Source: Desulfobacterales bacterium
GTDB taxonomy: Bacteria; Desulfobacterota; Desulfobacteria; Desulfobacterales; 4572-123
Direction: 5' to 3'
Length of the DNA stretch: 40,000 nucleotides
Assembly: GCA_963667755.2 (NCBI GenBank)
Contig: CAXXLK010000002.1
Span: forward strand, 928,118 to 968,117
The notes beneath the pieces were generated by a model. That model saw nothing but the letters and a program-made list of their open reading frames with translations, did not search any database and had not been told where the DNA came from. Positions 21,354 to 37,752 of the stretch are shown piece after piece (within the stretch, counting starts at the first letter, position 1; the number at the start of each line of letters is the position of its first letter). The position numbers and the translations under genes are program-made.

Positions 21354-21366
21354 CGAAGCCTTCTCC

Positions 21367-22329: not shown

Positions 22330-22342
22330 TTTTTCACCGTTT

Positions 22343-24256
22343 TTAAGATGTTTGTAACACAGATTTCGGTTGATATTTTTTCGGGAGCGGTGTGTTTTCC
22401 TCAAAAGGTATGGCCAGCTTGAAAACACCCTCATCAAGCCGTGAGAAGACCTTTAATTCGCCTTTTTCAAAAATTCGCAACATGGCTTTATTGTGCTCCA
22501 GAATTTCAGCAACAAGCCCCTTCAGACCTCTTTTTTTAGCCAGTTTTATCAACATGCGGTACATGTAGGAGGCAATGCCGAGGCCATTATAGGCCTCATC
22601 GATGAAAAACGCCAGATCGCCGAATTCCGCTTCGTCTATTTTTGCAAAGCGAGCCTCGGCGATGATGGTTTCCTCTTTAGCATCTCCAAGAATGGCAACG
22701 ATAGAGACATCGGTGCTGTAATCAATGTTGACATATGCCTGCATGTCCTGGTGCTTCATGATTGAAATGGGAAAGAAAAACCGGCTTTGGATACCTTTTT
22801 TTGAAAACCGATAAAACAGGTGCCGCATGGCTGCTTCATCCGAAGGTTTGGTAGGCCTGAAACGGACTTTTACCCCCCCCTTAAAGAGATGTTCCCCCAT
22901 GATGTCCAATGGGTAAAATCGGCCTATATTTATGGGATAAGCCTGATCCTTGAAAAGAATTCGTTTCTCTTTTGCGACCCGGATCAATGCCTCTCTGTCA
23001 TCTGGATGGGCGATGTCGATAAGGGATAGTGCCCGTTCTTTGAGGGTGCGCCACTTCAGGTTTGCGATGCCATATTCTGTGACAACCGCATCGATGGATT
23101 CTCTCATATGAAATTGATTGCGCAGGTCTCGAAGCATAGCGACAATATTGGGGGTGCCCCTGTTGTTTCTGCTGGGCAGCCCGACAATTGTCCGCCCCCC
23201 CGCAGAAAGTTCGGCGCCGGTAAAAAGGTCGGCAGACTGCCCCGGGCCTGTTACGAGATTACCCTTGCCCATGGAAAAAGAAATACGCCCCAGCAAATCG
23301 ACTTTGTTGGCCTCCTGTATGACAACAAAGTTGGAATTCCGCCCGATCTGTATCGGGTTTAAGACCTGTTCGATGCTCTGGAATTCCACAACCGGATTAC
23401 GATCCAGCCATTGCAGCAAACGAGGCGTACCCAGCGCATAAGAGGTCACTGATTTTCCCCGGAACACCTCTTTGCGATAATTGGAAACGGCGCCGCTTTT
23501 TACCAGATCCATGAGTGCATCCGTAAAATAGGCTGTATGAATACCCAGATGCTTTTTGGACATCAGGGTCTGGCTCAACGCATCGAACAAGGGGCCTGTA
23601 TGAAAATTGATACAATCGCCGTCCTGTATTATCTGCGCGATATTTGCGGCCACTTTATTGATGACAGGTTTGACGGGATACCGTTTAAAATAAAGTGGCG
23701 GCACCGTGGCTTCAACAAGGAGGTCAAAATCAGAAATAGAAACAATCGTATCACCCAAGGTAAAGGGGATCTGGGTATTGATTTCCCCGACAACCAGGGA
23801 CGCCCGATGCATGGCCTCCCTCGCAATATCGATGGCAACCCCCATAGAGCAGTATCCCGCACTGTCCGGCGGCGTAATCTGAACGAATGACACATCGATG
23901 GGAATCCGGTTGGACTTGATCAGTTCCTGTATCTGGGAAATGCGTCCGGGGATTAAATCAACATTGCCCGCAATAACCGCTTCACTGGAAATCCATGTGG
24001 AAAAGAATGTTTTAAGCCGATATTTCTGGTAATCCAGTTTTTTTAATGAAAAAAAATCACTATGGCTGGACAGCTGAATCAATTCCAGATCATGAAGATT
24101 GGGATAATCAGAGGCAAACAGCTGTTGCGTGAGTGTTCGGGGCTCTGCAACGCCACTTCCCACAAAAATACTCATCCCGGGTTTGATATACGTTAATATT
24201 TCCTCGGGAGGTACCACCCGTTGTCGCCATTGCATGTGATTCTCGTGATCTCCCAT
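22343..24256 (-). CDS. Fusion protein: acetyl-CoA hydrolase/transferase-family domain plus C-terminal GNAT acetyltransferase domain
   Basis: 637-aa ORF. The N-terminal ~430 aa resemble 4-hydroxybutyrate/acetyl-CoA transferases (GMSIFVGSGVAEP...ELIQL...VSFVQITPPDSAGYCSMGV). The C-terminal ~170 aa carry a GNAT core (AFFIDEAYNGLGIASYMYRMLIKLAKKRGLKGL, matching the Q/RxxGxG/A motif). Confidence 0.8.
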   Translation of the reverse strand: MGDHENHMQWRQRVVPPEEILTYIKPGMSIFVGSGVAEPRTLTQQLFASDYPNLHDLELIQLSSHSDFFSLKKLDYQKYRLKTFFSTWISSEAVIAGNVDLIPGRISQIQELIKSNRIPIDVSFVQITPPDSAGYCSMGVAIDIAREAMHRASLVVGEINTQIPFTLGDTIVSISDFDLLVEATVPPLYFKRYPVKPVINKVAANIAQIIQDGDCINFHTGPLFDALSQTLMSKKHLGIHTAYFTDALMDLVKSGAVSNYRKEVFRGKSVTSYALGTPRLLQWLDRNPVVEFQSIEQVLNPIQIGRNSNFVVIQEANKVDLLGRISFSMGKGNLVTGPGQSADLFTGAELSAGGRTIVGLPSRNNRGTPNIVAMLRDLRNQFHMRESIDAVVTEYGIANLKWRTLKERALSLIDIAHPDDREALIRVAKEKRILFKDQAYPINIGRFYPLDIMGEHLFKGGVKVRFRPTKPSDEAAMRHLFYRFSKKGIQSRFFFPISIMKHQDMQAYVNIDYSTDVSIVAILGDAKEETIIAEARFAKIDEAEFGDLAFFIDEAYNGLGIASYMYRMLIKLAKKRGLKGLVAEILEHNKAMLRIFEKGELKVFSRLDEGVFKLAIPFEENTPLPKKYQPKSVLQTS

Positions 24257-24499
24257 GGGGCCTTCATCCGGATTTAGTATGGGTCTAAACAGTTATTTGC
24301 TTGCTGCTGCGCAAAACTCAGCATACACCACTTTCATGTAAAAAAAAGGATAGGGCCTTGACCATCGCTTGGGCCACATTCGCAAAAAGGCTGACGCCTG
24401 AACGCCTACGAAATGAAGGTCTTCGGTCGAAACGATGATCAAAGCCCGGAATCAACAACGTATCAGCACCTTTTGATTTGTCATGAAGAACGCCGAGGT

Positions 24500-26089
24500 T
24501 TATTTGAACCACCATCTTTCAGCGTTGTGTTGCCCATCCGCTTCCATGTGGCCTGAAATGGTGTCGTGGCCGACCTTGTCGGACAGTGCCTCGACGATCT
24601 GGGCGAACATGGGAATGATGGTCCCGCCTTCATCTTTGCAGATCTCCTGCATATCCGCATACATCTGTGCCCGTTTTTTTTCGTCGAGTTCCGCCTTGGC
24701 TTCTACGAGCAGTTTGGTGAATTTTTCATTATCCCAGTGCGCATCGTTCCAGGGTGCGCCGGAGGCATAGGCCACGGAAAACATCATGTCTTCGGTGGGG
24801 CGTCCACTCCAGTAGCACATACAGAACTCTTTCTTTGTCCAGACGTTGCTCCAGTAGCCGTCGGCCGGTTCCCGCACCACATTGACGTTGATGCCTGCTT
24901 TTTTAGCATGCTCCTGAAACAGGATGGCGGCATCGTCGGCACCCGAAAAAGCAGCCTCGGAACTGTGCAGGTTAAATGTGTGGTTTTCCATGCCGGCCTT
25001 TTTCATGTAGAAGCGGGCCTTGTCCGGATCGTAGTGTCGTTGCTTGAGGTTTTTGGCATGATAGCGGTTGATCGGTGCAATGGGGTGATCGTTTCCAACC
25101 TCGCCGTAGCCATTCAGGATTCGTTTCACCATATCATCGCGATTTACGGCATACTTGAGACCCAGACGGACATTATTATCGTCATACGGTTTCATCTTGG
25201 TGTGCATGGGCATGGTGTAGTGGAAGGTAGCGGTCACTGCGCTGATTTCAATGCCCTTTGACCGTTTCAGGAGATGGATGGTTTTCCGTTCACAGCGGTC
25301 CATGAAGTGAATCTGCCCTGTCTTGACGGCGCTGGTTCTGGCATTGACATCGTTGATGGCAAGGGTTTCCACCTTGTCGAAATGAGCCCGACCCGCTTTC
25401 CAGTAGTTTGGGTTTCTTCTGGTGATGGCGGTGACACCCGGTTCCCATTTCTCAAGGATATACCCCCCCGTACCGATCCCTTTTTCAAAGTCCATTCCCT
25501 TTGTGCCGGCCTTGAACACGGATAGATGGTAATCACCCATGATGAACGGAAAATCGGCAAAGCCGGCGTCAAGTTCAAAAATCACGCGATGTTTGCCATC
25601 GGCCTTGATGTTTGTGACCGGTTTCAGATATTCTTTGGCAGCAGACTTAGAGTCTTCTCCCCGATGGTGGTTCATGGTATAGATCACATCTTCTGCATCC
25701 AGAGACTTTCCGTCGTGAAACTCCACGCCCTTGCGCAGGTTGAAGATCCATTTTTTGGCATCCGGCGATGATTCCCAGCTTTCGGCCAGCTCCGGAATGG
25801 GCTGAAGGTTGTGGTCGATCTCCGTCAGGCAGTTTCTCAGTTGCCATTCCACATTGATGTTCCAGCTGGATGTGTGGGTGGCCGGATCCAGTGTGTCGCT
25901 TGTGGATCCGCCGGTCTGCGCCTGTATAAAATGCCCCCCTTTTTTGGGTACTGCCGCCGCTGCCCTGCGCGGCAGTAAGGCCGGGGATATCGCCACTGTC
26001 AACCCTAGGGCCGCCGCCTGGGACAAGAATTGCCTCCTGCTGATTTTGCCTTCCACAAGCAGTTTTTCCAGAAAATTCAATGCGCTCAT
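24500..26089 (-). CDS. ABC transporter substrate-binding protein, family 5 (DppA/OppA-like), Tat signal
   Basis: 529-aa ORF with a twin-arginine leader (SRRQFLSQAAALGLTVAI...AAAA). A family-5 SBP is expected next to Dpp-type permeases. A GAGGAGG RBS is present. Confidence 0.85.
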   Translation of the reverse strand: MSALNFLEKLLVEGKISRRQFLSQAAALGLTVAISPALLPRRAAAAVPKKGGHFIQAQTGGSTSDTLDPATHTSSWNINVEWQLRNCLTEIDHNLQPIPELAESWESSPDAKKWIFNLRKGVEFHDGKSLDAEDVIYTMNHHRGEDSKSAAKEYLKPVTNIKADGKHRVIFELDAGFADFPFIMGDYHLSVFKAGTKGMDFEKGIGTGGYILEKWEPGVTAITRRNPNYWKAGRAHFDKVETLAINDVNARTSAVKTGQIHFMDRCERKTIHLLKRSKGIEISAVTATFHYTMPMHTKMKPYDDNNVRLGLKYAVNRDDMVKRILNGYGEVGNDHPIAPINRYHAKNLKQRHYDPDKARFYMKKAGMENHTFNLHSSEAAFSGADDAAILFQEHAKKAGINVNVVREPADGYWSNVWTKKEFCMCYWSGRPTEDMMFSVAYASGAPWNDAHWDNEKFTKLLVEAKAELDEKKRAQMYADMQEICKDEGGTIIPMFAQIVEALSDKVGHDTISGHMEADGQHNAERWWFK

Positions 26090-26369: not shown

Positions 26370-26954
26370 TCATAGGCGACTGTGCAGTCTGGCCAATAGA
26401 TCGGGCAACCATCCTAATGCCAGCTGTTCGAGGGCTTCCCGGGCGGGCCGTCCGGTAGTGGCCTCCCAGCTCCGCTGGCGGTAGAATTCTGCCGCTGCGG
26501 TATCGACTTCCGAGCGGTTCATACGTTTGCCATGGGTGGGTCTACCTTTGAGCGGTGTCGTAAAAATTTTTCTGCAAGTTTGTCCCTATCCCGGCTAAAG
26601 CCTTCCCGATAATTAAAGGCCCGCATCACATTCACCCGGCGGGCACCGACGGTAAGCAGTTCTTCCAGGGTTACGTTCCACCCGGTCACGGACTGAACGA
26701 GCGTGACATAATCGTCAGGCCCGTACAGCTGCCATGAAGCGCCCCAACAAAACGGGCAGACACAGAGGCTGTCGGCCCGGTTGAATATATCCTGGATCTG
26801 AATTGTATGTCCCGGCTTTAGCGACGCCTGCATCACTGATCAGGAAGACGTTCCTGGATTCCGTTAATGCAGAAATTTCATCTCCTATCTGTTCGACGCG
26901 ATCAACCCCGAAGGAGATGTTGCCAACCCCTGGAAAGGTAATTGGAATCATCAC
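26370..26954 (-). pseudogene. Chimeric relic: N-terminus of an iron-type alcohol dehydrogenase joined to the frameshifted C-terminus of an aldehyde:ferredoxin oxidoreductase
   Basis: 26954-26811 encodes MMIPITFPGVGNISFGVDRVEQIGDEISALTESRNVFLISDAGVAKAG, an Fe-ADH N-terminal pattern. From about 26803 a different frame reads IQIQDIFNRADSLCVCPF...VTGWNVTLEELLTVGARRVNVMRAFNYREGFSRDRDKLAEKFL. After a frameshift near 26556-26570, beside an A5T5 run, it reads TPLKGRPTHGKRMNRSEVDTAAAEFYRQRSWEATTGRPAREALEQLAL, with the stop at 26370-26372. This parallels the C-terminus of the intact AOR at 15081-16844. Confidence 0.65.
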
Positions 26955-27230: not shown

Positions 27231-28703
27231 TCATTCTTTGATCCCCAGCTCTTTTTCGGCGCCGTCAACAATGTCACGCAGCTGTTTGAGGACAGCCCCT
27301 GAAAGTTTCGGTGGTTCATATGTTTCAAGAATGTGTCGAACCGCTTCGCCGGCCCGCTCGTATGCATCCTTTGAACCGTTTTCTTCCCAGCGGAATCTCA
27401 TCTGCCGGTTCAGCAGCTTCGGGCTTGTGGTCAGCCGCATGTGCTTGAAGGTGGATTCGTGAGCCAGATAATCCTTGAAAGGGCCGACCTCCTTGATGGT
27501 ATCGATGGACAGGGTTTCGTCATTGACCTCAATGCCGTTTACCGTCCGTTTGATCATACCGGCCACTTCGTTATCCAATACCAGTTGTGCCAGATCAAAG
27601 GTGATACCCATTTCCAGCATTCCCAAGCCGTAAATTACGTTGCACCCTGACAACGCAGGCAAGATACCGGTGATGGTTTTTTCATGGCCGGACTGGTAGT
27701 CAACCACTTTGCTGTCGCCCTATCCACCGGCGGCGAAACTGGGCAACCCATAGTAGCGGGCAAGCCGGGCCACCGCCGCATTGATCATGGCCGTCTCAGG
27801 GGCACCCACCGTTGCCGTGGCATACTTCAGGTCCAGAGGGCAGGTGGAACTGGCATAAATGAACGGCGTCCCTTTTTTAACCAGTTGGCCCAGAACAAGA
27901 CTTGCCAGATTTTCGCTGTTTTGCTGTACCAATGTTCCGGCAATGTGGATGGGGGAAGAGCCGCCGGTCATGGCCATGCCGATACAGTTTAACCCAATGC
28001 CGTTTCGGGCCGCTTCGATAATGATGTCACAATGGTGGGACGACAGCTTCAAGGGGCTGATGGGACAGGTCACAAAGGTCAGAAACGGTCTTTCCCTGAA
28101 TTTATCCATATCCCCGGCGATGGCAGCGCACATTTCAAGAATTTTTCCGCACTGATACCGGTCCACCGGACCCAGCCAGTGATGCTTGGTCGTATTGGTG
28201 AGTGATGCCTCGGCATTGTGCAGTGCCTGCACCCTGGGGTCTTTATCATGGGAAAGCATGCAGCGTTCATAGGTTTCCACATGTTCCAGAGAATCGATGA
28301 GCCTGGCGGCCATCTCGATATCGGCCTTGGTGGTTTTACGATGTTCTCCCGTATAAGGATCGACAAACATGATGCCTTCACCAAAATTGGTGAACGTCAC
28401 CCGGTTGGCTTCCAGAACCACATCGCTCTCCGGTATGCGGCCGTAGGCATGAAACGTAGCCGGCGCCGTCCGGATCGACGCTTCCACCAGATAGGGTGGG
28501 AGGGTAACGACTTTTGTTTTTTCATTCACACTGGCGCCGGCAGCACCGAAGATCTGCCTTGCCTCTTCACTTTCCACAAAAACACCGGTGCATTTCAGGA
28601 TTTCAAGGGAACCCAGGTGTATTTCATGCACTTCGTCGTCGGTGAGTGTGTTTAGACTGAAGCCGCCGCTGGATAATTTCCCGGATTTGGTTGGTCGCTT
28701 CAT
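27231..28703 (-). CDS. mttB: Trimethylamine:corrinoid methyltransferase MttB with in-frame UAG (predicted pyrrolysine), copy 1
   Basis: Track ORFs 27720..28703 and 27231..27707 share one frame and are separated only by TAG at 27720-27722. The read-through sequence is ...YYGLPSFAAGG[TAG]GDSKVVDYQSGHEKT... The total of 490 codons is a typical MttB length. An AGGAGG RBS lies 5 nt upstream of the ATG at 28703. Confidence 0.85.
27720..27722 (-). other. In-frame UAG, candidate pyrrolysine codon (mttB copy 1)
   Basis: The plus strand reads cta and the minus strand reads GGT GGA TAG GGC GAC AGC AAA. The position aligns with the TAG of copy 2 and with a Met codon in the non-Pyl paralog at 13048-14523. 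Confidence 0.85.
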
Positions 28704-28725
28704 TTTTTCCTCCTGTAGAAGTCAT

Positions 28726-30120
28726 TTAACTATTTTTTTCGATGGCGTTCTTGACGGCGGTTAGTATTTGGTCCATCTGTTCTTTAGTGGCGACAAGGGC
28801 CGGCGCAAAGAGCATCATGGTGTTCATACCCGGCAGGCTGGAGTTGGTTCTGCCCACCAGCACGCCCTGGGCGGCCACATCCGCCACCAGTTTACCCATA
28901 AACGCTTCGGAAACAGGCGTTCTGGATGCCTTGTCCGTCACGAACTCCACTCCACAGAAAAGACCTTTGCCGCGTACGTCTCCAACAATGGGAAAATCCA
29001 AAAACGCTTTCAGGCCATTGAGCAGATATTCGCCTACCACCCTGCTGTTTTCCACAAGGTTTTCATCATCAATGATACGGGCCGTCTCAAGACCCGCGGC
29101 CATGGCGCCGGTACACCCGCCATAGGTACTGATATCCCGGAAATAATTCAATCGCTTTTCCGGTGTCCCGGTATCGAGGAACAGGTTAAAAATGTCATCG
29201 CTTATGGCGGTAACCGATAACGGTTCATAGCAACTGGCAACGCCCTTGGCCATAGTCACCATGTCCGGCGTTACATCATAATGTTCATGGCCCCAGAATT
29301 TTCCGGTGCGGCCGAACCCGCAGACCACCTCGTCAAAGATCAGGTAGGCCCCGTATTTTTTGCAGATTTGCTGGAGTATGGGATAGTATTCCTGGACGGG
29401 TACCAGGATGCCGCCGCCGGCAACAATGGGTTCCACGATCACCCCCCCCACGGTGTCCGGCCCCTCTTTTAGAATGACATCTTCCAGGGCGCGGGCGCAT
29501 TCGATGTTACAATCCGGATAGGTCTTGCCAAAGGCGCACCGGTAGCAAAGCGGGTGGGGAAACTCGGCAAACCCTTCAGCCATGGGTCCGAAATGCGCTT
29601 TTCGTTCACTCTGTCCCCCGGCACTCAATGCCCCGATGGTGGTACCGTGATAGTCCCGGTCCCGGTAGATCACTTTGAATTTACCTTTACGGTCATCGTT
29701 GATTTTCGCAAGCTGCCGGATGATCTTAAAGGCCTTCTCATTGGCTTCGGAACCGGAATTTGAAAAAAATATTTTCTTTTGATGGGGAAGCTTCTCTGCG
29801 AGTTTTTTAGCAAATTTAATGGCGGGGACTGTGCCGACCGCACCGGCGTAGTAGCACAGTTTTGTCAACTGTTCAGCCACCGCCTCGGCAATACTTCTGC
29901 GACCGTAACCCACCACCACGCCCCACACACCACCGGAGACTGCATCAAGATATTCCCGGCCCCGGATATCTTTTACCACAAGGCCGTTGCCTTCCACGAT
30001 AACCATCTGTTCCTTGTCTGCAAAGACACTATGGTCCTTGAGATGATGCCATAAAAAATCTTTGTCCGCTGCAACCATTTCTTCCACATCGTAATCAAGC
30101 CAGTTTGTTTTCGGATCCAT
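28726..30120 (-). CDS. Class-III (omega) aminotransferase, PLP-dependent
   Basis: 464-aa ORF with FFSNSGSEANEKAFK, LIFDEVVCGFGRTGK and DMVTMAKGV (PLP-lysine region). Its stop lies 22 nt upstream of the mttB copy 1 start. An AAGGAG RBS is present. Confidence 0.85.
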   Translation of the reverse strand: MDPKTNWLDYDVEEMVAADKDFLWHHLKDHSVFADKEQMVIVEGNGLVVKDIRGREYLDAVSGGVWGVVVGYGRRSIAEAVAEQLTKLCYYAGAVGTVPAIKFAKKLAEKLPHQKKIFFSNSGSEANEKAFKIIRQLAKINDDRKGKFKVIYRDRDYHGTTIGALSAGGQSERKAHFGPMAEGFAEFPHPLCYRCAFGKTYPDCNIECARALEDVILKEGPDTVGGVIVEPIVAGGGILVPVQEYYPILQQICKKYGAYLIFDEVVCGFGRTGKFWGHEHYDVTPDMVTMAKGVASCYEPLSVTAISDDIFNLFLDTGTPEKRLNYFRDISTYGGCTGAMAAGLETARIIDDENLVENSRVVGEYLLNGLKAFLDFPIVGDVRGKGLFCGVEFVTDKASRTPVSEAFMGKLVADVAAQGVLVGRTNSSLPGMNTMMLFAPALVATKEQMDQILTAVKNAIEKNS

Positions 30121-30240
30121 ATTTCAATCTCCTTTTCTAATACAAAAATTAGCAGGCAATACGAGAAAAACAGTAGCGCCCATAACTCTTTTTGTTCAGA
30201 CACAGGCGCATATCGCTTACCCCATGCTTACCTGTTGTGA

Positions 30241-31815
30241 TTATTTCGCATCCGGCATGGAAGAGATGGTCCCATCCCAGGTGTCCACGAGGCCGCAGGC
30301 TTCCTGGTCTTCGGGAAACCAGGTGGCGGTGACGCATTTGGATTCGGTAAAGAAACTGATACCATCTTTGCCCATCACATGCAGATCTCCAAAAAAGGAT
30401 TGTTTGTGACCTGTAAAACCGAAAATACCCAGTGGTACCGGGATGCCGACATTGACACCCACCATGCCGGCATCGGTCCGTTTGGAAAATTCCCGCGCGT
30501 AATGGCCGTTCTGGGTATAAATGACCGAACCGTTGGCAAAACGGCTGCTGTTCATCAAGGCCAGTCCTTCCTCAAAATTTTGGACCCGTTTGACGCAGAG
30601 TACCGGGCCAAAGACTTCCTCCCAGCCGATGGTCATTTCCGGTGTCACATGGTCAAAGATGCAGGGCGCCAGATAAAAACCGCCCTCATGACCCGCTACC
30701 TTGGGATTACGGCCGTCCACGATCAGTTCGGCGCCCTCTTCGATTCCTTTTTCGATCCAGTCGGTGATAAACTTCAGATGGCCCGCGTTCAAGATGGGCC
30801 CCATGCCGGTGTCCGGGTCATAGGCAGGGCCAAGGTTCATTTCGGCTACAAATTTTTTCAGCAGCGCAATCAGTTCATCCGCAATGCACGCTTCCACAAC
30901 GATCACCGGGCAGGCCATACACCGGGCACCGGCACAGCCGCAATAGGCATTGATAATACCCCTGGCGGTTCGCTCCAGTTTTGCATCCCGCATGACCAGC
31001 GCATGGTTTTTGGCTTCGGTGAGGGCCTGCACGCGCTTACCGTTGGCAGCGGCGGTGGCATAGATGTGTTTGCCGGTTTTGGTGGATCCCACAAAAGACA
31101 CCCCTGCAATATCGGGATGGCTAAGGAGAATCTCGGCCTCATTACGGCCTGCGGTGACCAGATTGAGGACCCCCTCGGGCAGTCCGGCCTCATGCCAGAG
31201 TTCCAGGAGCCGCATGGACGTCTGGGGCACAAAACTGGCGGCTTTCAGCACCATGGTATTGCCCGTGGCGATACACAGCGGTGCCATCCAGCCATGGGGA
31301 ATCATGGCGGGGAAATTCCAGGGTGCAATACCGGCGAAAACACCGACGGGGTGTCTGTAGAGAACCGTGTCATATCCGGCGGAAGCGTTCATCAGGGATT
31401 CTCCCTTCATCAAATGGGGGGTCCCGCAGGCAAATTCGACCACTTCGTTGACTTTCAGTACATCGCCCATGCTTTCCCGCCAGTTTTTACCTTCTTCCTG
31501 GCACAACAGGTGGGTCAGTTCTTCCAGGTGTTCATCCACCAGCGCTTTCATACGATACAAAACCTGAACCCGTTTACTGACCGGGGTGTCGGCCCAGGCC
31601 GGAAACGCCGCTTTAGCGGAATGAATGGCCGATTCGACCTCTTCGGATGTGCACTGGGGCGCCATGGCGATCACTTCGCCGGTGGACGGATTATAGCAAT
31701 CCATGTATTTTGTTGCTTTTGATTCAAGCCACTGCCCGTTGACGCAGTATTTCAGTTTTTTGACCGAATTTTTTGAAGACGACCCACTCTCCATAAAATA
31801 TCGTGATTTTTGCAA
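30241..31815 (-). CDS. mmsA: CoA-acylating methylmalonate/malonate-semialdehyde dehydrogenase family aldehyde dehydrogenase
   Basis: 524-aa ORF with [32 protein letters not shown], and EAKNH in place of the ELGGK general-base segment, as in MmsA/IolA-type enzymes. The [10 protein letters not shown] catalytic-Cys region is present. The track start at 31815 is a TTG lying 10 nt after AGGAG; the alternative ATG is at 31794. Confidence 0.8.
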   Translation of the reverse strand: [524 protein letters not shown]

Positions 31816-31904: not shown

Positions 31905-31986
31905 AAGGCTCCTCGCTGTTACATATGGGTAAATTTGACCGACTGCAGTCCCGGGCACCCACACGAAACAGCGAGGAACCTTTTTT
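31905..31986 (+). terminator. Long-stem hairpin followed by T6 (terminator-like structured element in the divergent intergenic region)
   Basis: Arms GGCTCCTCGCTGTT (31907-31920) and AACAGCGAGGAACC (31967-31980) pair at 13 of 14 positions, plus flanking A-T pairs. The 46-nt loop holds GGGT/ACCC and the palindromes GACTGCAGTC and CCCGGG. TTTTTT follows at 31981-31986. Confidence 0.45.
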
Positions 31987-32244
31987 AAAGATACTGTTTT
32001 AGTCATATAGCCTTGATAACTACGATGTCAAGTAAAAATAACCGTCCTTTTTACTTTTTCAGTTTATTATTATTTTATTTTCTACGTTTTAGCTTTTTTT
32101 TGTTTGAATTTTTATAATAATAGTGATAATTGAATTCTATTCTACTCCATAATAGGCATTTCAAACTAAACTGCGCGTCAACTTGAAACATTTCCATGAT
32201 GGGAGAATATCTCCATCTAAGTGTTAAAAAAAAGAGGCATTTTA

Positions 32245-32739
32245 ATGGAAAATCGAAAATTAAAGAAAAAAAACAAAACGCTGGACTTGGTCGATTGTGA
32301 AATTATTAATCTGCTGCAAAAGGACGGTAGGATCTCAAATACCGATATTGCAAAAAAAATGAGTATTTCTGAAGGAACCGTTCGCACCCGCCTGAATCGG
32401 TTGATTAAAAGCGAAATCATTCAGATTGTCGCTGTCAGCAACCCCATCAAACTCGGCTTTAAAATCGTGGGGCAAATCAGGATTCAGATAGATGTCGGCA
32501 AGATGGAGAATATTATAACAAAACTGAAAAAATTAAAAGCCCTATGGTTTATCGTCCAGACCACCGGGGGAACCACCGGTCTTGAAGCCGAATTTAACGT
32601 CAAGTCTCTGGATGAACTCAATACGTTGATTTTTGAAAACATCAACAAGATAGACGGCGTCATCAAAACCGATGTCTCCCTGATAATGGATTTTATCAAG
32701 CGACGATATGACTGGGGTACGGTGATGGATGAAAAATAA
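32245..32739 (+). CDS. Lrp/AsnC-family transcriptional regulator
   Basis: HTH segment DCEIINLLQKDGRISNTDIAKKMSISEGTVRTRLNRL plus a C-terminal RAM-like domain. I prefer the ATG at 32245 (AGAGG 7 nt upstream) over the GTG at 32221 used by the track. Confidence 0.85.
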   Translation: MENRKLKKKNKTLDLVDCEIINLLQKDGRISNTDIAKKMSISEGTVRTRLNRLIKSEIIQIVAVSNPIKLGFKIVGQIRIQIDVGKMENIITKLKKLKALWFIVQTTGGTTGLEAEFNVKSLDELNTLIFENINKIDGVIKTDVSLIMDFIKRRYDWGTVMDEK

Positions 32740-32765: not shown

Positions 32766-34157
32766 ATGGGAAAAATTAAAACCCGAATGGGCGATGGCTT
32801 CAAGGTCGAGATGACCGAAAGCGAAGTCCGAAAAGCCCTGGAGGAAGGGACTCAGGATGCGGCAGAGCGTGCCCGGGTCGAGCCATTGTCGCCGGATGAT
32901 CTCCAACGGATTTTTGAGATTTTTACCTGTCCTTATCGAATCGTTGGCGTTGATGAGGGCAATGAGGTGGTTCTTACCTACGACAGTCTTAACACCAAAA
33001 TCAAACGGGCACAGATTTCAGCCAGCAAGATCCAGTCCCTTCAGATTTGTGAAAGGGCCCTGGGGGCAGACACCCTGGAGCTTGCCCATATCGACTACAG
33101 TTATAAACCGGTAAAACCGATCATTCCCTTTGAAAAACCGATAATGGAGCAGGCCGTCCTGATCACAATCCCGGCATTGCTCTATGGCGCCATGCCTAAC
33201 CTGGGGCTCTACAGCCAGCCGGACGGCCCATGTCCTAATCCGGCGGATCTTCTTCCCAATGGAAAAATCGCTGAAGCCAGGGCATCCTATGAAGAGGCTG
33301 CCGAATACGCCATAGCGGATATGGTTTACGTGGGTAGCGAGATGTATGAATCCGGCGCCGACGGCATCAATTTTGATACCACGGCTGCAGCCGGGGATGC
33401 GGAATTTTATGCAACTCTCAAAGCGGTGGAGATTCTCAGAAAAAAATATCCCGCCATGGGCATCCAGATGGGTATGGCCGCGGAATTCGTATTGGGAATG
33501 CACGGAGAGATTGAATATAACGGTGTCCGTCTGGCCGGGCTCTACCCTCACCAGCAAGTCAAACTCGCCGAAGAAGCCGGGGTAAACATTTTTGGACCGG
33601 CCGTCAATATCGTCACCAATGAATCGTTGCCCTGGAACATTGCCCGTTCCGTTACCTGGACCAAAGCCTGCACGGATGTTGCAAAGATTCCGGTACACGC
33701 ATGCCTGGGAATGGGTGTCGGCGGTGTCCCCCTGGCGCTTACACCGCCCATAGATGCCCTTTCACGGGCATCAAAGGCCCATGTAGAGATCTGCAGGCTG
33801 GACGGGTTGTAGGTGGGTGTCGGAGACCCGTGCGGGATGCACGCTGCACATGCAATAGTATCGGGACTGGGTGGCATACGCACTGCCGGAGATCTGGTAG
33901 CACGAATGCAACTAAATGGCTCGATGAAAATTGATGCAGCAAAAAAACATGTCGCGGATAAGTTGAAAATTTCTGTCGCGGATATTGCGGACCCGGTGGT
34001 GATGAACGAACTCCGGGAAGATCTGGATATCGGCCGCGTCAATGAGGCCCCCGGTGTGGCCAAGGGTATTGATGCGAAGTTTAGGATTGCCAGGCTTCTG
34101 GACATTAACATCAACTCGGTGAACATATTCAAGGAGAAAATAGAACGCGACATATGA
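32766..34157 (+). CDS. mtbB: Dimethylamine:corrinoid methyltransferase MtbB with in-frame UAG (predicted pyrrolysine)
   Basis: Track ORFs 32766..33812 and 33813..34157 are contiguous in one frame and separated only by TAG at 33810-33812: ...SKAHVEICRLDGL[TAG]VGVGDPCGMHAAHAIVSGLGGIRTAGDLVARMQ... It is colinear, as far as I recall, with Methanosarcina MtbB (HIDYSxKPVKP, LxYGAMPNxGLY, ASGADGxNFDTTxAAGD, LAGLxPHQQ, DGx-Pyl-xGVGDPxGM, GDLVARM). The TAG is codon 349 of 463. An AAGGAGG RBS is present. Confidence 0.85.
33810..33812 (+). other. In-frame UAG, candidate pyrrolysine codon (mtbB)
   Basis: GAC GGG TTG TAG GTG GGT GTC GGA. Conserved MtbB sequence runs on both sides in the same frame. Confidence 0.85.
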
Positions 34158-34302: not shown

Positions 34303-34955
34303 ATGACGATAATTGAAGTACGCTTTGAAGAAGCCAAAAAGCCATGGTAGCGTGTGACGCTGAAAATGCCTCGCTGGTGGCGACACAGGGTTTAGCAGAT
34401 GGGATTGACCCTGTTGAATTTTTGAACAAGGGATTCATTCCCGGAATAAATGAGGTCGGAGGGCTTTTCGGTAAAGGCCGGTTGTTTCTTCCCGAATTGA
34501 GTATCGCCGCAGAAGCCATGCGACAGGTAACCGATATTATTAATGGTGCACTTGGAGCCGCCGGAACGATTTCAAAAAAGGCAGGGAAAATTCTCATGGC
34601 CACTGTTCAGGGTGATGTTCATGATATCGGTAAAACCATTGTGGTGTCACTTTTCAAAGCCAACGGATTTGAGGTGCTGGATTTGGGGCGAGATATTTCC
34701 AACGAAAAAATTATTGAAGAAGCTGTGCGGTTTGAAGCCGATATTATCGGTACCAGGGCGCTTCTCACCACTACTATGCCCGCCCAATAAAAACTTGAAA
34801 AAGAACTGAAGAAAGCCGGCCTGAAGGGAAAAATCAAGACAATTGTTGGTGGGGCGCCCGTAACACAGAGATGGGCCCAGCGCATCGGCGCAGATGCTTA
34901 CGCCCGGGGCGCATCTGATGGTGTTCAGAAAGCAAAGCTGATGATAGGGCTATGA
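34303..34955 (+). pseudogene. Corrinoid (B12-binding) protein gene downstream of mtbB, apparently inactivated (MtbC-like)
   Basis: Cap and B12 domains are recognisable (GDVHDIGKT = DxHxxG; ALLTTT; IVGGAPV). There are three lesions. (1) The RBS-proximal start, ATG at 34303 (MTIIEVRFEEAKK), is out of frame with the body starting at 34344, consistent with loss of one A in the A5 run at 34336-34340. (2) An in-frame TAA at 34788-34790 aligns with a Lys of the paralog at 35143-35772. (3) The SxL Ser is replaced by Arg (GTRALL). The conserved C-terminus KLEKELKKAGLKGKIKTIVGGAPVTQRWAQRIGADAYA continues in frame to the TGA at 34953-34955. Confidence 0.7.
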
Positions 34956-35142: not shown

Positions 35143-35772
35143 CTATACCAGAGATTTGGCCAGCTTGGTGGCTGAACCGGCATCTGCGGCATATCCGTCG
35201 GCACCGATTTCATCGGCATATTTCTGGTTTACCGGGGCACCGCCGATGATGACCTTGACCTTGTCGCGGTATCCGGCTTCAACCAGAGCGTCGATGGTTG
35301 TTTTCATCATACCCATGGTAGTGGTGAGCAGGGCAGAGATGGCAACTATGGTGGCGCCCTGGTCTTTTACGGCGGCCACAAAAGTTTCCGGGGCTACGTC
35401 AACACCCAGGTTGATCACCTCAAAACCGGCGCTTTCCAGCATCATGGCCACCAGGTTTTTACCGATGTCATGCAGGTCGCCCTTGGCCGTACCCATGGCA
35501 ACTTTGCCGGCGGCTTTGGCATCTTCTACGGACAGCAGGGGTTTAAGTATTTCCACTGCTGCGGCCATGGCCTTGGCGGCCATGAGCACTTCGGGGATAA
35601 ACATATCGCCGTTCTGCATTTTTTCGCCGACAATATCCATGCCTTTGATCAATCCGTCATTGAGAATATCTTTTGCTTCCATTCCCTCGTTCACGGCGGC
35701 TTGCACAAGCGTTTTCAATGTTGCTGCATCGCCGGCTATCAGTGTGTTCGAAAGTGCGTTTAAATCTGCCAT
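35143..35772 (-). CDS. mttC: Methylamine-type corrinoid protein (MttC-like, B12-binding)
   Basis: 209-aa ORF with a helical cap domain plus GDLHDIGKN (DxHxxG), SALLTTT (SxL) and IIGGAPV (GG). It lies 48 nt downstream of mttB copy 2 and has an AAGGAG RBS. It terminates in TAG (35143-35145). The symbol is assigned by context only. Confidence 0.8.
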   Translation of the reverse strand: MADLNALSNTLIAGDAATLKTLVQAAVNEGMEAKDILNDGLIKGMDIVGEKMQNGDMFIPEVLMAAKAMAAAVEILKPLLSVEDAKAAGKVAMGTAKGDLHDIGKNLVAMMLESAGFEVINLGVDVAPETFVAAVKDQGATIVAISALLTTTMGMMKTTIDALVEAGYRDKVKVIIGGAPVNQKYADEIGADGYAADAGSATKLAKSLV

Positions 35773-35820: not shown

Positions 35821-37314
35821 TTATTTCTGGGAAACCGTGGCCCGTTTTTCTTTTGCTTGGGCCTCGGCATTTTCAAATATTGTGTTTAACTGGGCCTGAA
35901 TGTTTTCAGGCAATGCTTCTACCTTGTGGCTGGCGATGATGTGGGCTGCCCTGGCATAGGCTTTTTCCACAACATCCTTTGATCCATCTGCAATCCAGCC
36001 GTCACGGCTTTTTCTGTCAAAAAGGTCTCCCTGGGACTGCCGCCGCATATTTTTAAAGGTATGCGGATGGGTGATGAATTCACCGCCGTGGCCCACCTCT
36101 TTGATGACGTCAAAAGCAATGGCTTCATCGGTAATGGTAAATCCTTCGACTGCCTTCATGATCATTCTCAGCATTTCATTGTGTAAAACCGCCTGGGCGT
36201 AATCCCAGGTCAAACCGCTGTCAAGCATCCCGAGGCCGTAAATCAGGTTGGCACCTGCCAACGCCGTTAAAGTGGCCGTTAAGGTATATTCATGGGCTGC
36301 CTGCGCATCGGGCATTTTGCTGTCCACCTATCCACCGGCGACCCAGGAGGGGAGCCGGTAAAACTTGGCCAATTTGGCGATGGCAGCGCTGAACATCCCC
36401 ATTTCCGGAGTCCCCATGGCCGCCAGTCCGGTTTTAAGGTCCATGATGCTGGTGGAACTGCCGTATACCATGTGATGGCCCTTGCGGACAGCCTGTCCCA
36501 GGACAATCATGCTTAAATTTTCAGCATTATGGGTGACAAGACTGCTGGCCAGGTTGATGCAGGTGGTGCCACCCGCCAGTCCAAGGGGGTTGATTTTCAG
36601 GGGGACGCCCAGTCGACAGGCTTCAATCAGAACGTCGCAGGCATCTTTTGAATGCAGCAACGGGCTGATGGGATCACAGGTTGTGGAGAAAATCGGTCTT
36701 TCACGGAATTTGTCATCACCGCCGGCCACAACGGAGGCCATCTTAAAACAGGTCCTCAGATTTTCAACCGAGTTGATGCCGATATAGCCATGTTTGGTGC
36801 AGGAATTCAAAAAACTTTTAATGTTGTAAAGACAGCAGATATCCTGGTCCATATCGCAGGGGGTTAACGGTCTTTCAAACACAACGACCTGGTCCAGTGC
36901 ATCCAGAAATAACGTGGCGTCATCAACGTCAGCTTTTGTGGGGGTTCTTAATTTTCTGGTTTTGGGGTCGATCATCATGGGGGCTTCGCCAAAATTGACA
37001 AATCCCGACCGACCGTTTTCACAGACATAATCCTTTTCAGGATCACGGGCGCAAGCCTTAAAAGTGGAAGGGCAGGACCTGATGGCATCTTCAACCAGAT
37101 GGGCTGGAATTTTGACTATTTTGGTTCTATTATTGACAATACAACCAATTCCGTCAAAAATTTCAAGGGCCTGGGAGCTTTCCACTTTGACTCCCATTTC
37201 CCAGAGAATTTCCAGAGTAGCCAGATGAATTTTTTCCAATTCGTCATCGGAAAACATGTTCAGACCGATACCACTGGTCAGAACGGTTCCCGGCTGCAAA
37301 TTTCTTACCGCCAT
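35821..37314 (-). CDS. mttB: Trimethylamine:corrinoid methyltransferase MttB with in-frame UAG (predicted pyrrolysine), copy 2
   Basis: Track ORFs 36328..37314 and 35821..36327 are contiguous in one frame and separated only by TAG at 36328-36330: ...FYRLPSWVAGG[TAG]VDSKMPDAQAAHEYT... The gene is 497 codons and colinear with copy 1 throughout. Confidence 0.85.
36328..36330 (-). other. In-frame UAG, candidate pyrrolysine codon (mttB copy 2)
   Basis: The minus strand reads GGT GGA TAG GTG GAC AGC AAA. This is the same GG-TAG-xDSK context as copy 1. Confidence 0.85.
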
Positions 37315-37714
37315 AATTGGTTTCCTTCATTTTCATAGAAAGACGATAAAATTTCGGTTTTTTACCGGAGGCTGCCTATATATGGTATGTTTTTTCCGGT
37401 AATGAAAGACTCTCCTTGTGCGTTGCAACAGCTTTTAATTATAGATATTTTTTTGTTGAATCCCTCCTTAATTTATTAAATAAAAATTCAAAATAATGTA
37501 CCATTTGATCGCCTATAAACCCTTAAGGGCGCGGTATAATGACTCTGGGTCAAAAAGTCAATCATAATCATCACAAAAGGGTGTATTTTTATGATTCAGT
37601 GTACAAAAATACCCCCTTGATGGCATCGGCCGCCTGCATCAGTTCAGGTAAAAAGAGCTGGCTCCTGCCAAAAAGATCGCTTATTTAGTGTCCCTATCGG
37701 GGATGGTTGAAACC

Positions 37715-37732: not shown

Positions 37733-37752
37733 AAAAATATATAATTGTCGCT

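Follow-up and report, generated by a model that had tools for sequence, protein, structure and literature searches.

Gene Content and Organization

The window, meaning the whole 40,000-nucleotide stretch of Desulfobacterales DNA that was analyzed, carries on its minus strand a gene for an mmsA-like CoA-acylating (methyl)malonate-semialdehyde dehydrogenase (ALDH; 30241-31815), followed after 120 nt by one for a class-III omega-aminotransferase (AT1; 28726-30120) and, after a further 22 nt, by the pyrrolysine (Pyl)-type methyltransferase gene mttB1 (27231-28703), precisely the order, strand, and spacing given in a preliminary description of this DNA. The ALDH gene, the first of the unit, starts with TTG where homologs have ATG. 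Its product matches PF00171 (465 bits), the MMSDH model TIGR01722 (536.5 bits; cutoff 448.5), and Bacillus subtilis MSDH 1T90 (475 bits), with which it shares the AKNH and R-C-M-A-C motifs (LTEAKNH and GARCMAC aligning with LTGAKNH and GERCMAC). Judged by these matches it is a true MMSDH-family CoA-acylating enzyme, as had been proposed, and the Arg ahead of the catalytic Cys, retained along with the entire MMSDH signature, fits a carboxylated semialdehyde as substrate. AT1 (PF00202, 295 bits) scores 479.7 bits against NF005812, below the cutoff of 488, and automatic JGI annotation calls its homologs taurine-pyruvate aminotransferase; sequence comparison makes it an omega-amine aminotransferase. 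Together, AT1 and the MMSDH are the classical pair that converts an omega-amine to an acyl-CoA, as stated earlier, and in Desulforamulus aeronauticus the same pair stands without a methyltransferase, beside an amino-acid permease and a sigma-54 activator.

The three genes are one tightly packed same-strand unit and look like an operon. A putative promoter, TTGACA-N16-TATATG (32004-32031, minus strand), points at the ALDH, and the TTGACATCGTA core occupies the equivalent position 5' of the operon in four relatives (L001/L002, L084, and L003), standing in L003 ahead of AT1-mttB1-mtbB-MMSDH. Between this site and the ALDH start, an imperfect palindrome of approximately 78 nt with 26-nt arms (31905-31982) has been inserted that is missing in L084 and L001. 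The ALDH-AT1 spacer (30121-30240, minus strand) forms a long imperfect hairpin (-35.5 kcal/mol, z = -2.85) that is not called a terminator by a simple terminator scan and could be an mRNA stabilizer or partial terminator. The same hairpin occurs in L084 (z = -3.0) and a hairpin of unrelated sequence in L170 (z = -2.75), while L001 has none in this spacer. The AT1-mttB1 spacer (28704-28725, minus strand) has an AGGAGG ribosome-binding site and no hairpin. Scanning of both gaps revealed neither promoter nor terminator, in line with the operon originally suggested. In L001, a close relative without mttB1, AT1 is followed directly by a strong hairpin and eight U (-31 kcal/mol, z = -3.5), and this terminator is not present in the window or in L084.

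The only in-frame stop in mttB1, which is otherwise intact over 490 codons, is a TAG (27720-27722) that aligns with Pyl334 of Methanosarcina barkeri MttB, directly followed 3' by a match to the Rfam element PYLIS_3 (27623-27722). The preliminary description had suggested that this enzyme may not act on free trimethylamine (TMA), a suggestion that its sequence does not bear out. With its two halves summed (425.2 + 216.3 bits), MttB1 passes the curated Pyl-MttB equivalog cutoff (TIGR02369, TMA methyltransferase). Identity to M. barkeri MttB is 40%; Gly110, Met249, Pyl, and Tyr364 are all retained, and a Phe, similar to M. barkeri Tyr329, occupies the column of the carboxylate-binding Arg312 of acid-betaine methyltransferases. 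The Thr111 position is Glu in all bacterial Pyl types, a negative charge that does not favor an anionic substrate. In sequence terms, MttB1 is a canonical Pyl-MttB. Marine Deltaproteobacteria Pyl-MttBs have been interpreted as TMA enzymes (PMC8318568), and the case for the Bilophila Pyl-MttB was based on genomics and transcripts (PMC7593587); our literature search found no biochemical assay for any Desulfobacterota Pyl-MttB.

Neighboring Methylamine-Related Genes

Divergently from the ALDH operon, the plus strand encodes an AsnC/Lrp-family regulator (32221-32739; Pfam HTH_24, HTH_AsnC-type, and AsnC_trans_reg), a gene kept beside AT1/ALDH in L001, L003, L084, L093, and L008. Its transcript also carries, 26 nt further 3', a Pyl-type dimethylamine (DMA) methyltransferase homolog, mtbB (32766-34157; TAG 33810-33812; PYLIS_2 match 33810-33909). 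MtbB reaches the DMA-methyltransferase equivalog cutoff with its halves summed (TIGR02368, 368.4 + 125.5 bits). MttB1 and MtbB alike have a pyrrolysine codon, and both keep the catalytic residues. Of the two methyltransferase partners at this locus, the divergent asnC-mtbB unit is the better conserved.

No corrinoid-protein gene adjoins mttB1. The one 3' of mtbB (34344-34955, plus strand) is interrupted by an in-frame TAA (34788-34790) and is probably a pseudogene, leaving an MttC/MtbC/MtgC-like protein (35143-35772, minus strand; B12-binding and B12-binding_2 domains; TIGR02370, 199 bits) as the window's sole intact candidate for accepting methyl groups. Adjacent to it on the minus strand is a second Pyl-MttB gene, mttB2 (35821-37314; TAG 36328-36330), whose product shares only 43% identity with MttB1 and carries Leu in place of M. 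barkeri Met249. Upstream of mttB2, across IS remnants (37753-38862), is a GABA-aminotransferase-type class-III aminotransferase gene, AT2 (38943-39947, minus strand; TIGR00700, 443 bits), the 5' end of which probably extends past the listed open reading frame; the window thus holds a second AT-mttB2-mttC set.

Further away, a non-Pyl, MtgB-like member of the MttB family (13048-14523, minus strand; PF06253, 400 bits; no in-frame stop) scores 323 bits against MtgB (2QNE/9YCE) and has the carboxylate-binding Arg at the R312-equivalent column, making it a candidate for a quaternary-amine step. Just 3' of mttB1 is an AOR fragment (26519-26836). The mttB1 strand also carries, downstream of that gene, a block (18835-26089) encoding an Opp/Dpp-type ABC transporter (SBP_bac_5, two permeases, and a double ATPase) and a CoA-transferase/GNAT fusion; homologs of the binding protein and of the fusion recur beside MttB1/MtbB genes in L125, L132, L137, L138, L146, L151, and L172.

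Recurrence Beside Pyl Methyltransferases

The linkage of aminotransferase and MMSDH genes to Pyl methyltransferases recurs but is not obligatory. An independent metagenome contig (L084) has the identical three-gene order at 91-93% protein identity, and at least six different layouts place MMSDH and class-III aminotransferase genes next to a Pyl-MttB or Pyl-MtbB gene; these layouts involve several aminotransferase subfamilies and include one Clostridia genome. In L001/L002, mtbB-asnC diverges from MMSDH-AT1, and L001, the nearest relative, keeps ALDH-AT-asnC-mtbB with mttB1 missing. In L003, asnC diverges from AT1-mttB1-mtbB-MMSDH (42% identical), with a corrinoid gene further on, and L166 reads AT1-MMSDH (37% identical)-ABC transporter-mtbB. 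In L093/L095, AT1-MMSDH-AsnC diverges from a dimethylglycine-dehydrogenase-like (DMGDH-like) flavoprotein, MttB1, and EtfBA; L095 continues with an Fe-S oxidoreductase, a BCCT transporter, and a non-Pyl MttB. L170, which came from context-blind sampling of MtbB homologs, has MMSDH (555 bits), a class-III aminotransferase of a different subfamily, an alanine-dehydrogenase remnant, MtbB, a corrinoid protein, and pylSBCD. The Clostridia locus (L013) reads non-Pyl MttB, AT1-like, alanine dehydrogenase (directly 3' of the AT1-like gene), Pyl-MttB, and non-Pyl MttB. In L107/L109, a Liv-type ABC transporter precedes MttB1 and, after 16 nt, an aminotransferase of a third subfamily, and in L130/L144 an AT2-like GABA-type aminotransferase lies within MttB-MttC-MtbB clusters, comparable to the AT2-mttB2-mttC set described above.

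Class-III aminotransferases near MttB1-type genes number 9 against 2.6 expected (P = 0.0015, falling to about 0.05 once near-duplicate contigs are collapsed). With the order shared by L084, this indicates that the three-gene linkage is more than chance. Most MttB1-type genes nevertheless have other neighbors: MtbB, non-Pyl MttB, or, most commonly, a DMGDH-like flavoprotein with ETF. Approximately 70 of 80 MttB1 loci are without an aminotransferase.

That a recent rearrangement in an island prone to recombination simply placed mttB1 behind AT1, without adaptive meaning, and that the gene may be little used or decaying, is improbable. The IS remnants, the AOR fragment, the broken corrinoid gene after mtbB, the palindrome inserted in the promoter region, the lack of a cognate corrinoid gene beside mttB1, and the presence of mttB1 in L084 yet not in L001 at equal divergence (about 92-94%) would fit such an event. 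However, the mttB1 reading frame is interrupted only at the Pyl codon and follows a good ribosome-binding site, the arrangement is retained in L084 despite a protein divergence of approximately 8%, L003 likewise has AT1 next to mttB1, and analogous pairings of independent origin exist elsewhere.

It is still less likely, indeed very doubtful, that AT1 converts monomethylamine, the end product of MttB and MtbB, to formaldehyde and that the CoA-acylating ALDH yields formyl-CoA, replacing a missing monomethylamine methyltransferase. No MtmB-like gene is annotated in the window, a CoA-transferase is present, and AT-MMSDH and DMGDH-like-ETF resemble alternative modules downstream of MtbB. However, no such methylamine transamination is known to occur, the active-site Arg and MMSDH signature are those expected for a carboxylated semialdehyde, and AT1-MMSDH also occurs with a permease and no methyltransferase.

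Possible Demethylation of Methylated Beta-Amino Acids

The best reading of the divergon, a tentative one, is a route in which an N-methylated beta-amino acid is first demethylated and the product then transaminated and oxidized, with the series of N,N-dimethyl- and N-methyl-beta-alanine as the best guess for the substrate. The tertiary amine would be added to the pyrrolysine imine by MttB1, with transfer of one methyl group to a Co(I) corrinoid protein, and the secondary amine would be handled likewise by MtbB. The freed beta-alanine would be transaminated with pyruvate by AT1, and malonate semialdehyde would be converted by the MMSDH to acetyl-CoA and CO2, while methyl groups would enter the tetrahydrofolate/Wood-Ljungdahl pool. 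Beta-alanine betaine, demethylated by a non-Pyl MttB, could supply the route. Such a route is favored because demethylation of free TMA or DMA gives no substrate for an aminotransferase. It is also favored by the 22-nt AT1-mttB1 gap with its ribosome-binding site, the signal-free gaps, the post-AT1 terminator of L001 that is missing in the window and in L084, the promoter-like core conserved in four relatives, the pairing in different layouts, and the aminotransferase enrichment. Further, the anaerobic demethylase for tertiary amines such as dimethylglycine is still to be identified (PMC9768040).

The main rival, also quite possible, casts MttB1 and MtbB as conventional methyltransferases for TMA and DMA. 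Their genes would share a transcript or a location with an independent AT/MMSDH module for beta-alanine (or taurine), all belonging to a mobile, co-regulated set that scavenges nitrogenous osmolytes co-released from decaying biomass, and no substrate would be handed over to the aminotransferase. Support for this rival comes from the PYLIS matches and the published reading of marine Pyl-MttBs. The canonical residues, including the Phe at the Arg312 column, and the curated models support it too and argue against the methylated-amino-acid route, and the restriction of known Pyl-enzyme substrates to free methylamines (PMC13080624) likewise weighs against that route. MttB1/MtbB pairs, 68-74% identical, that stand isolated among housekeeping genes (L113-L131 and L174) point the same way, and the very different gene surroundings of the same MttB1 type (83% identity) are what a general-purpose TMA module would show. 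AT1-MMSDH works alone in Firmicutes, and in L001, which manages without mttB1, it adjoins reductive pyrimidine-degradation genes, whose product is beta-alanine. AT1 homologs at 77-79% identity (L164 and L167) have no methyltransferase in their context, and among those 62-70% identical in Desulfobacterota genomes none has one within 10 kb. The scarcity of aminotransferases at MttB1 loci, the corrinoid genes (absent by mttB1, broken after mtbB), and the ongoing rearrangement of the region that IS remnants and pseudogene fragments reveal also disfavor the route. Ordinary TMA and DMA enzymes, however, leave unexplained the repeated recruitment directly beside Pyl methyltransferases, Clostridia included, of at least three aminotransferase subfamilies and of MMSDHs that share only 37-61% identity, as well as the disappearance of the terminator after AT1 from loci that have mttB1, and several operons (e.g., L086 and L095) would encode only pathway fragments.

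The sequence of N-demethylation, transamination, and oxidation first suggested for this locus is partly supported: the aminotransferase-MMSDH pair, the operon anatomy, and the recurrent synteny stand, and the proposed non-TMA substrate of MttB1 does not find the same support. The recurring pairings give a tentative hint that these Pyl methyltransferases may demethylate methylated amino acids and not just free trimethylamine.

Organization and predicted transcription of the unit

The gene order, strand and spacing that the preliminary description had assigned to the unit were matched exactly by the open reading frame map and its translations. On the minus strand, the aldehyde dehydrogenase gene (ALDH; 30241-31815, 524 codons) is followed after 120 nt by the class-III omega-aminotransferase gene AT1 (28726-30120, 464 codons) and, after a 22-nt spacer with an AGGAGG inside, by mttB1 (27231-28703), a 490-codon frame with a single internal stop, the TAG at 27720-27722. 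A gene for an AsnC/Lrp regulator (32221-32739) diverges from ALDH. The asnC-ALDH intergenic region is conserved among the window and two fetched homologous loci, L084 (gene layout identical to the window) and L001, and within it lies a TTGACA-N16/17-TAT(A/T)T(G/A) site oriented toward ALDH (window 32004-32031), the core of which also occurs upstream of AT1 in a further locus, L003.

A consensus scan of both gaps returned no promoter-like and no terminator-like sites. Because this simple terminator scan also overlooked a long-loop terminator in L001, RNA folding was adopted. At the sequence level, L001 offers the most telling comparison for a single transcription unit: its AT1 and ALDH are 94% and 92% identical to those of the window, mttB1 is absent, and 3' of AT1 there is a strong hairpin with an eight-U run (-31.3 kcal/mol, z = -3.5, reached by none of 200 shuffles). 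In both the window and L084, the AT1-mttB1 spacer is short and folds into no structure. A promoter or terminator between the aminotransferase and mttB, which the preliminary description had named as evidence against linkage, was not found, and co-transcription of ALDH, AT1 and mttB1, as we infer it, is well supported by sequence. The ALDH-AT1 spacer of the window folds as a long hairpin (z = -2.85) that is conserved in L084 and has a counterpart of unrelated sequence in L170, a locus fetched through its dimethylamine (DMA) methyltransferase gene; it could act as a stabilizer of the upstream mRNA or as a read-through attenuator.

An imperfect palindrome of about 78 nt (31905-31982; 26-nt arms, 85% complementary) has been inserted in front of the ALDH start, downstream of the conserved promoter-like site. 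The window has a single copy, and neither L084 nor L001 has one; a small mobile or REP-like element is a possible origin, with a potential effect on expression.

Identity of the dehydrogenase and the aminotransferase

The assignment of the ALDH to the CoA-acylating (methyl)malonate-semialdehyde dehydrogenases (MMSDH) was borne out by its score against TIGR01722 (536.5 bits, cutoff 448.5, runner-up family 326 bits) and by its conserved motifs. Among PDB entries it matched Bacillus subtilis MSDH (1T90) with 475 bits and MMSDH entries with 420-475 bits, the top non-MMSDH entry reaching 234, and its LTEAKNH and GARCMAC motifs align to LTGAKNH and GERCMAC of 1T90. We take AKNH and the Arg-Cys at the catalytic cysteine to be MSDH residues, with the roles presumed for them there.

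AT1 matched PF00202 over residues 38-460 (295 bits), and its best curated model was NF005812 (479.7 bits, cutoff 488). The nearest solved structure in a PDB search is an uncharacterized structural-genomics 'BioA', which is silent on substrate, and the relationship to the Pseudomonas beta-alanine-pyruvate transaminase type (4B98) is only distant (173 bits). Homologues number in the thousands, mainly in Desulfobacterota metagenome bins; the closest contigs are metagenomic, and the best match among GTDB representative genomes is 70% identical (Desulfosarcina). Like the classical pair for beta-alanine and beta-aminoisobutyrate degradation, in which MMSDH is represented by, for example, MmsA/IolA of B. 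subtilis (1T90), the window combines a clear MMSDH family member with an adjoining class-III omega-aminotransferase; unlike that pair, it appears to be co-operonic with a Pyl methyltransferase.

Neighborhoods of AT1 homologues

The closest AT1 homologues recur in variants of this arrangement. In L001 and L002 (AT1 94% identical), Pyl-type mtbB and asnC diverge from ALDH-AT1, without mttB1. In L003 (89%), asnC diverges from AT1, mttB1, mtbB, a different MMSDH gene (42% identical to the window ALDH; 487 bits against TIGR01722) and, further on, a corrinoid protein gene, and in L166 (78%) AT1 is followed by yet another MMSDH (37%, 452 bits), an ABC transporter and Pyl-type mtbB. At similar distances, no methyltransferase accompanies AT1 in L164 and L165 (77%), where TRAP transporters and a Zn-ADH are the neighbors, or in L167 (79%), where the neighbor genes are of polyamine type. 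Of 80 loci taken from GTDB representative genomes (48-70% identity), only two have an MttB-family gene close to the AT1 homologue. One of these, from a Clostridia MAG (L013), has the order non-Pyl MttB, aminotransferase, alanine dehydrogenase, Pyl-MttB (with an in-frame stop) and non-Pyl MttB. Methyltransferase-free aminotransferase-MMSDH pairs occur in a Peptococcaceae MAG and in Desulforamulus aeronauticus, in the latter with an amino-acid permease and a sigma-54 activator.

The ALDH-AT1/asnC-mtbB core of L001 (L001:13031-21395) adjoins a full reductive pyrimidine-degradation set (dihydropyrimidine dehydrogenase subunits, dihydropyrimidinase, CN-hydrolase and uracil permease), together with a second aminotransferase and a second ALDH. 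Reductive pyrimidine degradation is a source of beta-alanine.

Many AT1 homologues are named taurine-pyruvate aminotransferase by JGI, an automatic naming that raises the reading of taurine or N-methyltaurine as the substrate. The taurine:pyruvate aminotransferase and alanine dehydrogenase system of taurine-degrading Desulfobacterota (Bilophila, Desulforhopalus) is alike in this naming and in the alanine dehydrogenase gene that follows the AT1-like gene in L013 and persists as a putative remnant after the aminotransferase gene in L170; it differs in the partner of AT1, which here is an MMSDH in place of Xsc or a sulfoacetaldehyde reductase, and annotation of the window showed no gene for sulfonate cleavage. 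Because every AT1-partnered ALDH in the methyltransferase clusters is of MMSDH type, and no sulfoacetaldehyde-cleaving gene was seen, the taurine reading ranks below that of beta-alanine.

Active site of MttB1

The internal stop of mttB1 prevents full-length scoring; its two halves gave 425.2 and 216.3 bits, 641 in sum, against the Pyl-MttB equivalog TIGR02369 (cutoff 525), and an Rfam PYLIS_3 match lies directly after the TAG. Since the listed homologues of the N-terminal half all end at about 327 aa, mostly at exactly 327, the Pyl stop appears conserved across a large Desulfobacterota family. MttB1 belongs to the same family as M. barkeri MttB of the MttB/MttC system (7XCL/7XCN; PMC9842639), with fold-level homology (223 and 126 bits), and is only 40% identical to this assayed archaeal enzyme. 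In an alignment of 120 MttB-family sequences from the window and the fetched loci with M. barkeri MttB, the TAG falls on X334 (Pyl334). The active-site residues of the archaeal enzyme are Gly110-Thr111, Met249, Pyl334 and Tyr364 (PMC9842639), and the equivalents of Gly110, Met249 and Tyr364 are conserved in MttB1 as G108, M243 and Y358. All 71 MttB1-type sequences read G, E, M, Pyl and Y across these five positions; the Glu, where M. barkeri has Thr111, is shared by all bacterial Pyl types examined.

In MtgB the betaine carboxylate is contacted by a pair of residues, Arg312 and His348, the first of which all characterized acid-betaine members share (PMC13080624). A carboxylate-binding residue sought in MttB1 by analogy with this pair was not found: the Arg312 equivalent is Phe in 71 of 71 MttB1-type sequences and aromatic in the other bacterial Pyl types examined. 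Because the canonical residues are kept and Phe replaces this Arg, MttB1 looks like a trimethylamine (TMA)-type enzyme, and the known positions give no sign of carboxylate binding. Judged from sequence, this canonical site is the strongest evidence against the proposal that the unit demethylates an N-methylated omega-amino compound.

The setting of mttB1 differs from that of its archaeal counterpart: there is no adjacent mttC, mttP or ramA, and the gene is placed in an apparent aminotransferase/MMSDH operon instead. No corrinoid protein gene adjoins it, the nearest intact one (35143-35772) coming after mttB2, the second Pyl-mttB of the window, and a search for pylT in the window gave no tRNA gene. 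Because the host is bacterial, with Desulfobacterota-like homologues, the methyl group would be passed to tetrahydrofolate rather than coenzyme M. Two points count against the argument from the active site: the identity of only 40% to the assayed archaeal enzyme, and the outcome of a literature search, which turned up no Desulfobacterota Pyl-MttB that had been assayed biochemically; the cases of Bilophila and marine Deltaproteobacteria are based on genomics and transcripts (PMC7593587, PMC8318568).

Other methylamine-related genes of the window

In total, the window encodes three MttB-family proteins, one MtbB and two class-III aminotransferases. Beginning 26 nt after asnC is a Pyl-type mtbB (32766-34157; TAG at 33810-33812), the halves of which gave 368.4 and 125.5 bits against TIGR02368 (cutoff 369.1), with a PYLIS_2 match present. 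The corrinoid protein gene downstream of it (34344-34955, plus strand) seems short at the N-terminus, has an in-frame TAA, rather than TAG, at 34788-34790 and is likely a pseudogene, which leaves the gene at 35143-35772 as the sole intact corrinoid protein gene of the window. Next to it, mttB2 (35821-37314) encodes a protein only 43% identical to MttB1, with Leu at the M. barkeri Met249 position.

Upstream of mttB2-mttC, and separated from them by IS remnants (37753-38862), lies AT2, a GABA-AT-type aminotransferase gene (38943-39947), so that the minus-strand stretch 35821-39947 forms a second association of an aminotransferase with a Pyl-mttB. The two associations were considered as a duplicated pair, which was rejected given the 43% identity of the MttBs and the different subfamilies of the aminotransferases.

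The same strand carries, downstream of mttB1, a fragment of an aldehyde:ferredoxin oxidoreductase (AOR) gene (26519-26836; 105 aa, AFOR_C only) and an Opp-type ABC transporter with a CoA-transferase/GNAT fusion, and beyond these a HIBADH-like dehydrogenase, an intact AOR (15081-16844) and a non-Pyl MttB (13048-14523). The fragment, with an intact AOR elsewhere, suggests that genes directly downstream of mttB1 have decayed or been rearranged. The non-Pyl MttB belongs to the same superfamily as the quaternary-amine methyltransferases MtgB, MtpB, MtcB, MtyB and MthB and has the conserved carboxylate-binding Arg at the MtgB R312 equivalent. Non-Pyl quaternary-amine enzymes stop after one demethylation, releasing, for example, dimethylglycine or dimethylaminoethanol (PMC13080624, PMC12155760). 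These methyltransferases lack Pyl, whereas MttB1 has Pyl and lacks the Arg.

Farther along the minus strand (7237-12123), EtfB/EtfA genes lie between two FAD-linked oxidase (GlcD-like) genes, with an FGGY kinase and an SDR adjoining. The makeup resembles that of an ETF-coupled hydroxy-acid dehydrogenase cluster with no relation to the mttB1 unit.

Recurrence beside MttB1-type and MtbB genes

Eighty metagenome loci were fetched from MttB1 (65-93% identity). Neighbors of the MttB1-type gene in these loci include a dimethylglycine dehydrogenase (DMGDH)-like flavoprotein (30 of 80), MtbB (20), EtfB (20), a non-Pyl MttB of the window type (14), MttC (11), a class-III aminotransferase (9) and SBP_bac_5 (7). 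Over the 0.81 Mb examined, nine aminotransferases were counted where the flanks of the AT1-centered loci would predict 2.6 (P = 0.0015, or about 0.05 with near-duplicate contigs collapsed to six). Accidental adjacency of aminotransferase and methyltransferase genes is judged improbable. Conservation of the three-gene arrangement, proposed earlier as a check, was partial: the exact order recurs in L084 and variants recur elsewhere, while L001 is missing mttB1 and most MttB1 loci have no aminotransferase.

The aminotransferases concerned are diverse. In L093 and L095, asnC, an MMSDH (78%) and AT1 (66%) on one strand diverge from a DMGDH-like gene, MttB1, EtfB and EtfA, followed in L095 by an Fe-S oxidoreductase, a BCCT transporter and a non-Pyl MttB. 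In L107 and L109, a Liv-type ABC transporter precedes MttB1, and an aminotransferase of another subfamily (PRK07483 type) begins 16 nt later. Further aminotransferases occur within MttB/MttC/MtbB clusters in L129, L130 and L144, those of GABA-AT type in L130 and L144, where the clusters are intact, being 55-58% identical to AT2.

The commonest neighbor is an 815-aa DAO-FAO_M-GCV_T protein resembling dimethylglycine/sarcosine dehydrogenases, encoded immediately upstream (e.g., L086:7502-14790; loci L085-L097, L100-L103, L105, L110, L111, L116, L120, L126, L135, L153 and L154). EtfB-EtfA follow the MttB1-type gene immediately in these operons, with or without a CCG-domain Fe-S oxidoreductase, and a non-Pyl MttB and a BCCT transporter are often next. 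By its likeness to the dimethylglycine/sarcosine dehydrogenase and ETF system of oxidative, folate-dependent N-demethylation, this protein, mostly with EtfBA, places another N-demethylating module in the same neighborhoods; the module is absent from the window and occurs together with AT1-MMSDH in L093 and L095. A literature search for DMGDH with MttB and ETF found no paper on this operon.

In other loci (L106, L108, L112, L114, L119, L122, L124, L130, L137 and L139-L150), the gene directly upstream of the MttB1-type gene has no in-frame stop and belongs to a non-Pyl clade, so that a non-Pyl and a Pyl gene stand in tandem. Members of the clade (e.g., L142:3874-5352) are 36-42% identical to MttB1; Ala or Thr takes the place of Pyl in them, Tyr364 is replaced by Phe, and the position equivalent to MtgB R312 lacks Arg. 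A tblastn search of the loci with a presumed M. barkeri MtmB sequence gave no matches, but this sequence itself matched no NCBIfam model, and the result carries no weight.

Six MtbB homologues (74-82% identity) were sampled regardless of context. One of them, in L170, has the order MMSDH (61% identical to the window ALDH; 555 bits against TIGR01722), class-III aminotransferase (PRK08117 type, not AT1), a remnant of an alanine dehydrogenase C-terminus, MtbB, corrinoid protein, pylS and pylBCD. In L172, MtbB comes after an SBP_bac_5 ABC transporter among pyl genes, so that in both loci pylS-BCD adjoins mtbB. Three of the six have no amine-related neighbors, and in one of them MtbB is paired with MttB1 among housekeeping genes. 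The remnant in L170 is a 43-codon frame between the aminotransferase and MtbB (L170:6700-6940; sequence ...GVNVVKGKVTYRGVSEAFSLAYIPVEEMM), which by eye we take to be the C-terminal end of an alanine dehydrogenase. This suggests an ancestral order MMSDH-AT-Ald-MtbB, comparable to AT-Ald-MttB in L013.

In the remaining one of the six, in L168 and L169 (L168:1971-8392), the Pyl-MtbB is 80% identical to that of the window, and agmatinase-like, saccharopine-dehydrogenase-like, EamA and ornithine-cyclodeaminase-like genes lie upstream on the same strand, a further context in which a 'dimethylamine' methyltransferase stands with enzymes of substituted amines.

A proposed coupling of demethylation and deamination

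At least three aminotransferase subfamilies stand beside Pyl-MttB or Pyl-MtbB, often with MMSDH, alanine dehydrogenase or both. Demethylation of free TMA or DMA gives methylamine and ammonia, which an omega-aminotransferase does not accept, and a route through transamination of methylamine is very improbable. Because the placement of aminotransferases is repeated and architecturally independent, the simplest explanation is that the methyltransferases deliver a primary omega-amine. The demethylate-then-deaminate idea of the preliminary description fits this recurrence, while the TMA-type signature of MttB1 does not favor it; likewise, the suggestion that MttB1 may not act on free TMA gains from the recurrent synteny and loses from an active site without a carboxylate-binding residue. 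On balance, a coupled pathway of demethylation, deamination and oxidation is our favored reading, held tentatively and at somewhat below an even chance.

A strong competitor, itself quite possible, is that ordinary TMA and DMA methyltransferases are merely co-expressed, as general modules in amine-scavenging islands. It would account for the canonical MttB1 signature, for stand-alone MttB1-MtbB pairs at 68-74% identity, for the absence of mttB1 from L001, for AT1 homologues at 77-79% identity in methyltransferase-free contexts and for the mosaic, IS-scarred nature of the locus; the repeated presence of at least three aminotransferase subfamilies beside Pyl-MttB or Pyl-MtbB speaks against it.

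Under the coupled pathway, L095 could be read as one complete route: import by BCCT, demethylation of a quaternary amine by the non-Pyl MttB and of the tertiary amine by Pyl-MttB1, then methyl removal from the secondary amine by the DMGDH-like/ETF module or MtbB, followed by AT1 and MMSDH. MttB1 would take over the tertiary-amine product of the non-Pyl quaternary-amine enzyme. The literature leaves room for such a pathway, since an anaerobic dimethylglycine demethylase has not yet been identified and new roles for bacterial Pyl-MttBs have already been speculated upon (PMC9768040).

More broadly, it is conceivable, if still less than probable, that the activity of the Pyl MttB and MtbB in Desulfobacterota and in certain Clostridia is not, or not solely, directed at TMA and DMA, and that these enzymes represent the missing anaerobic demethylases of tertiary and secondary N-methyl amino acids. 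Beta-alanine, GABA and glycine with one or two N-methyl groups would be the proposed substrates, with betaines taken down to the primary amine and consumed by the adjacent aminotransferase and semialdehyde dehydrogenase or by the DMGDH-like/ETF module.

Implications

Each part of the unit belongs to a known family; the novelty lies in the placement of a Pyl methyltransferase within an aminotransferase/MMSDH operon, with recurring variants, and in the hypothesis that this arrangement makes testable. Full-text literature searches returned no description of either, and a search for MttB with beta-alanine betaine found nothing. To the best of our knowledge, Pyl occurs in only three enzyme families, all assigned to free methylamines, and in the anaerobes studied so far that we know of, corrinoid-dependent betaine demethylation halts at the tertiary amine or proceeds by an unknown enzyme. 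Should N-methylated amino acids prove to be substrates of Pyl methyltransferases, the 22nd amino acid would gain in chemical scope, and the enzymes that finish betaine mineralization in anoxic marine and saline sediments, where this process competes with methylotrophic methanogenesis for methyl groups, would be identified. Re-reading would then be needed for the many genes of sulfate reducers, symbionts and gut bacteria that are annotated as 'TMA methyltransferase'. Even if these are plain TMA and DMA enzymes, their recurrent joining with aminotransferase/MMSDH modules points to osmolyte-scavenging islands under common regulation, and the recurring units are concrete, clonable operons for testing.
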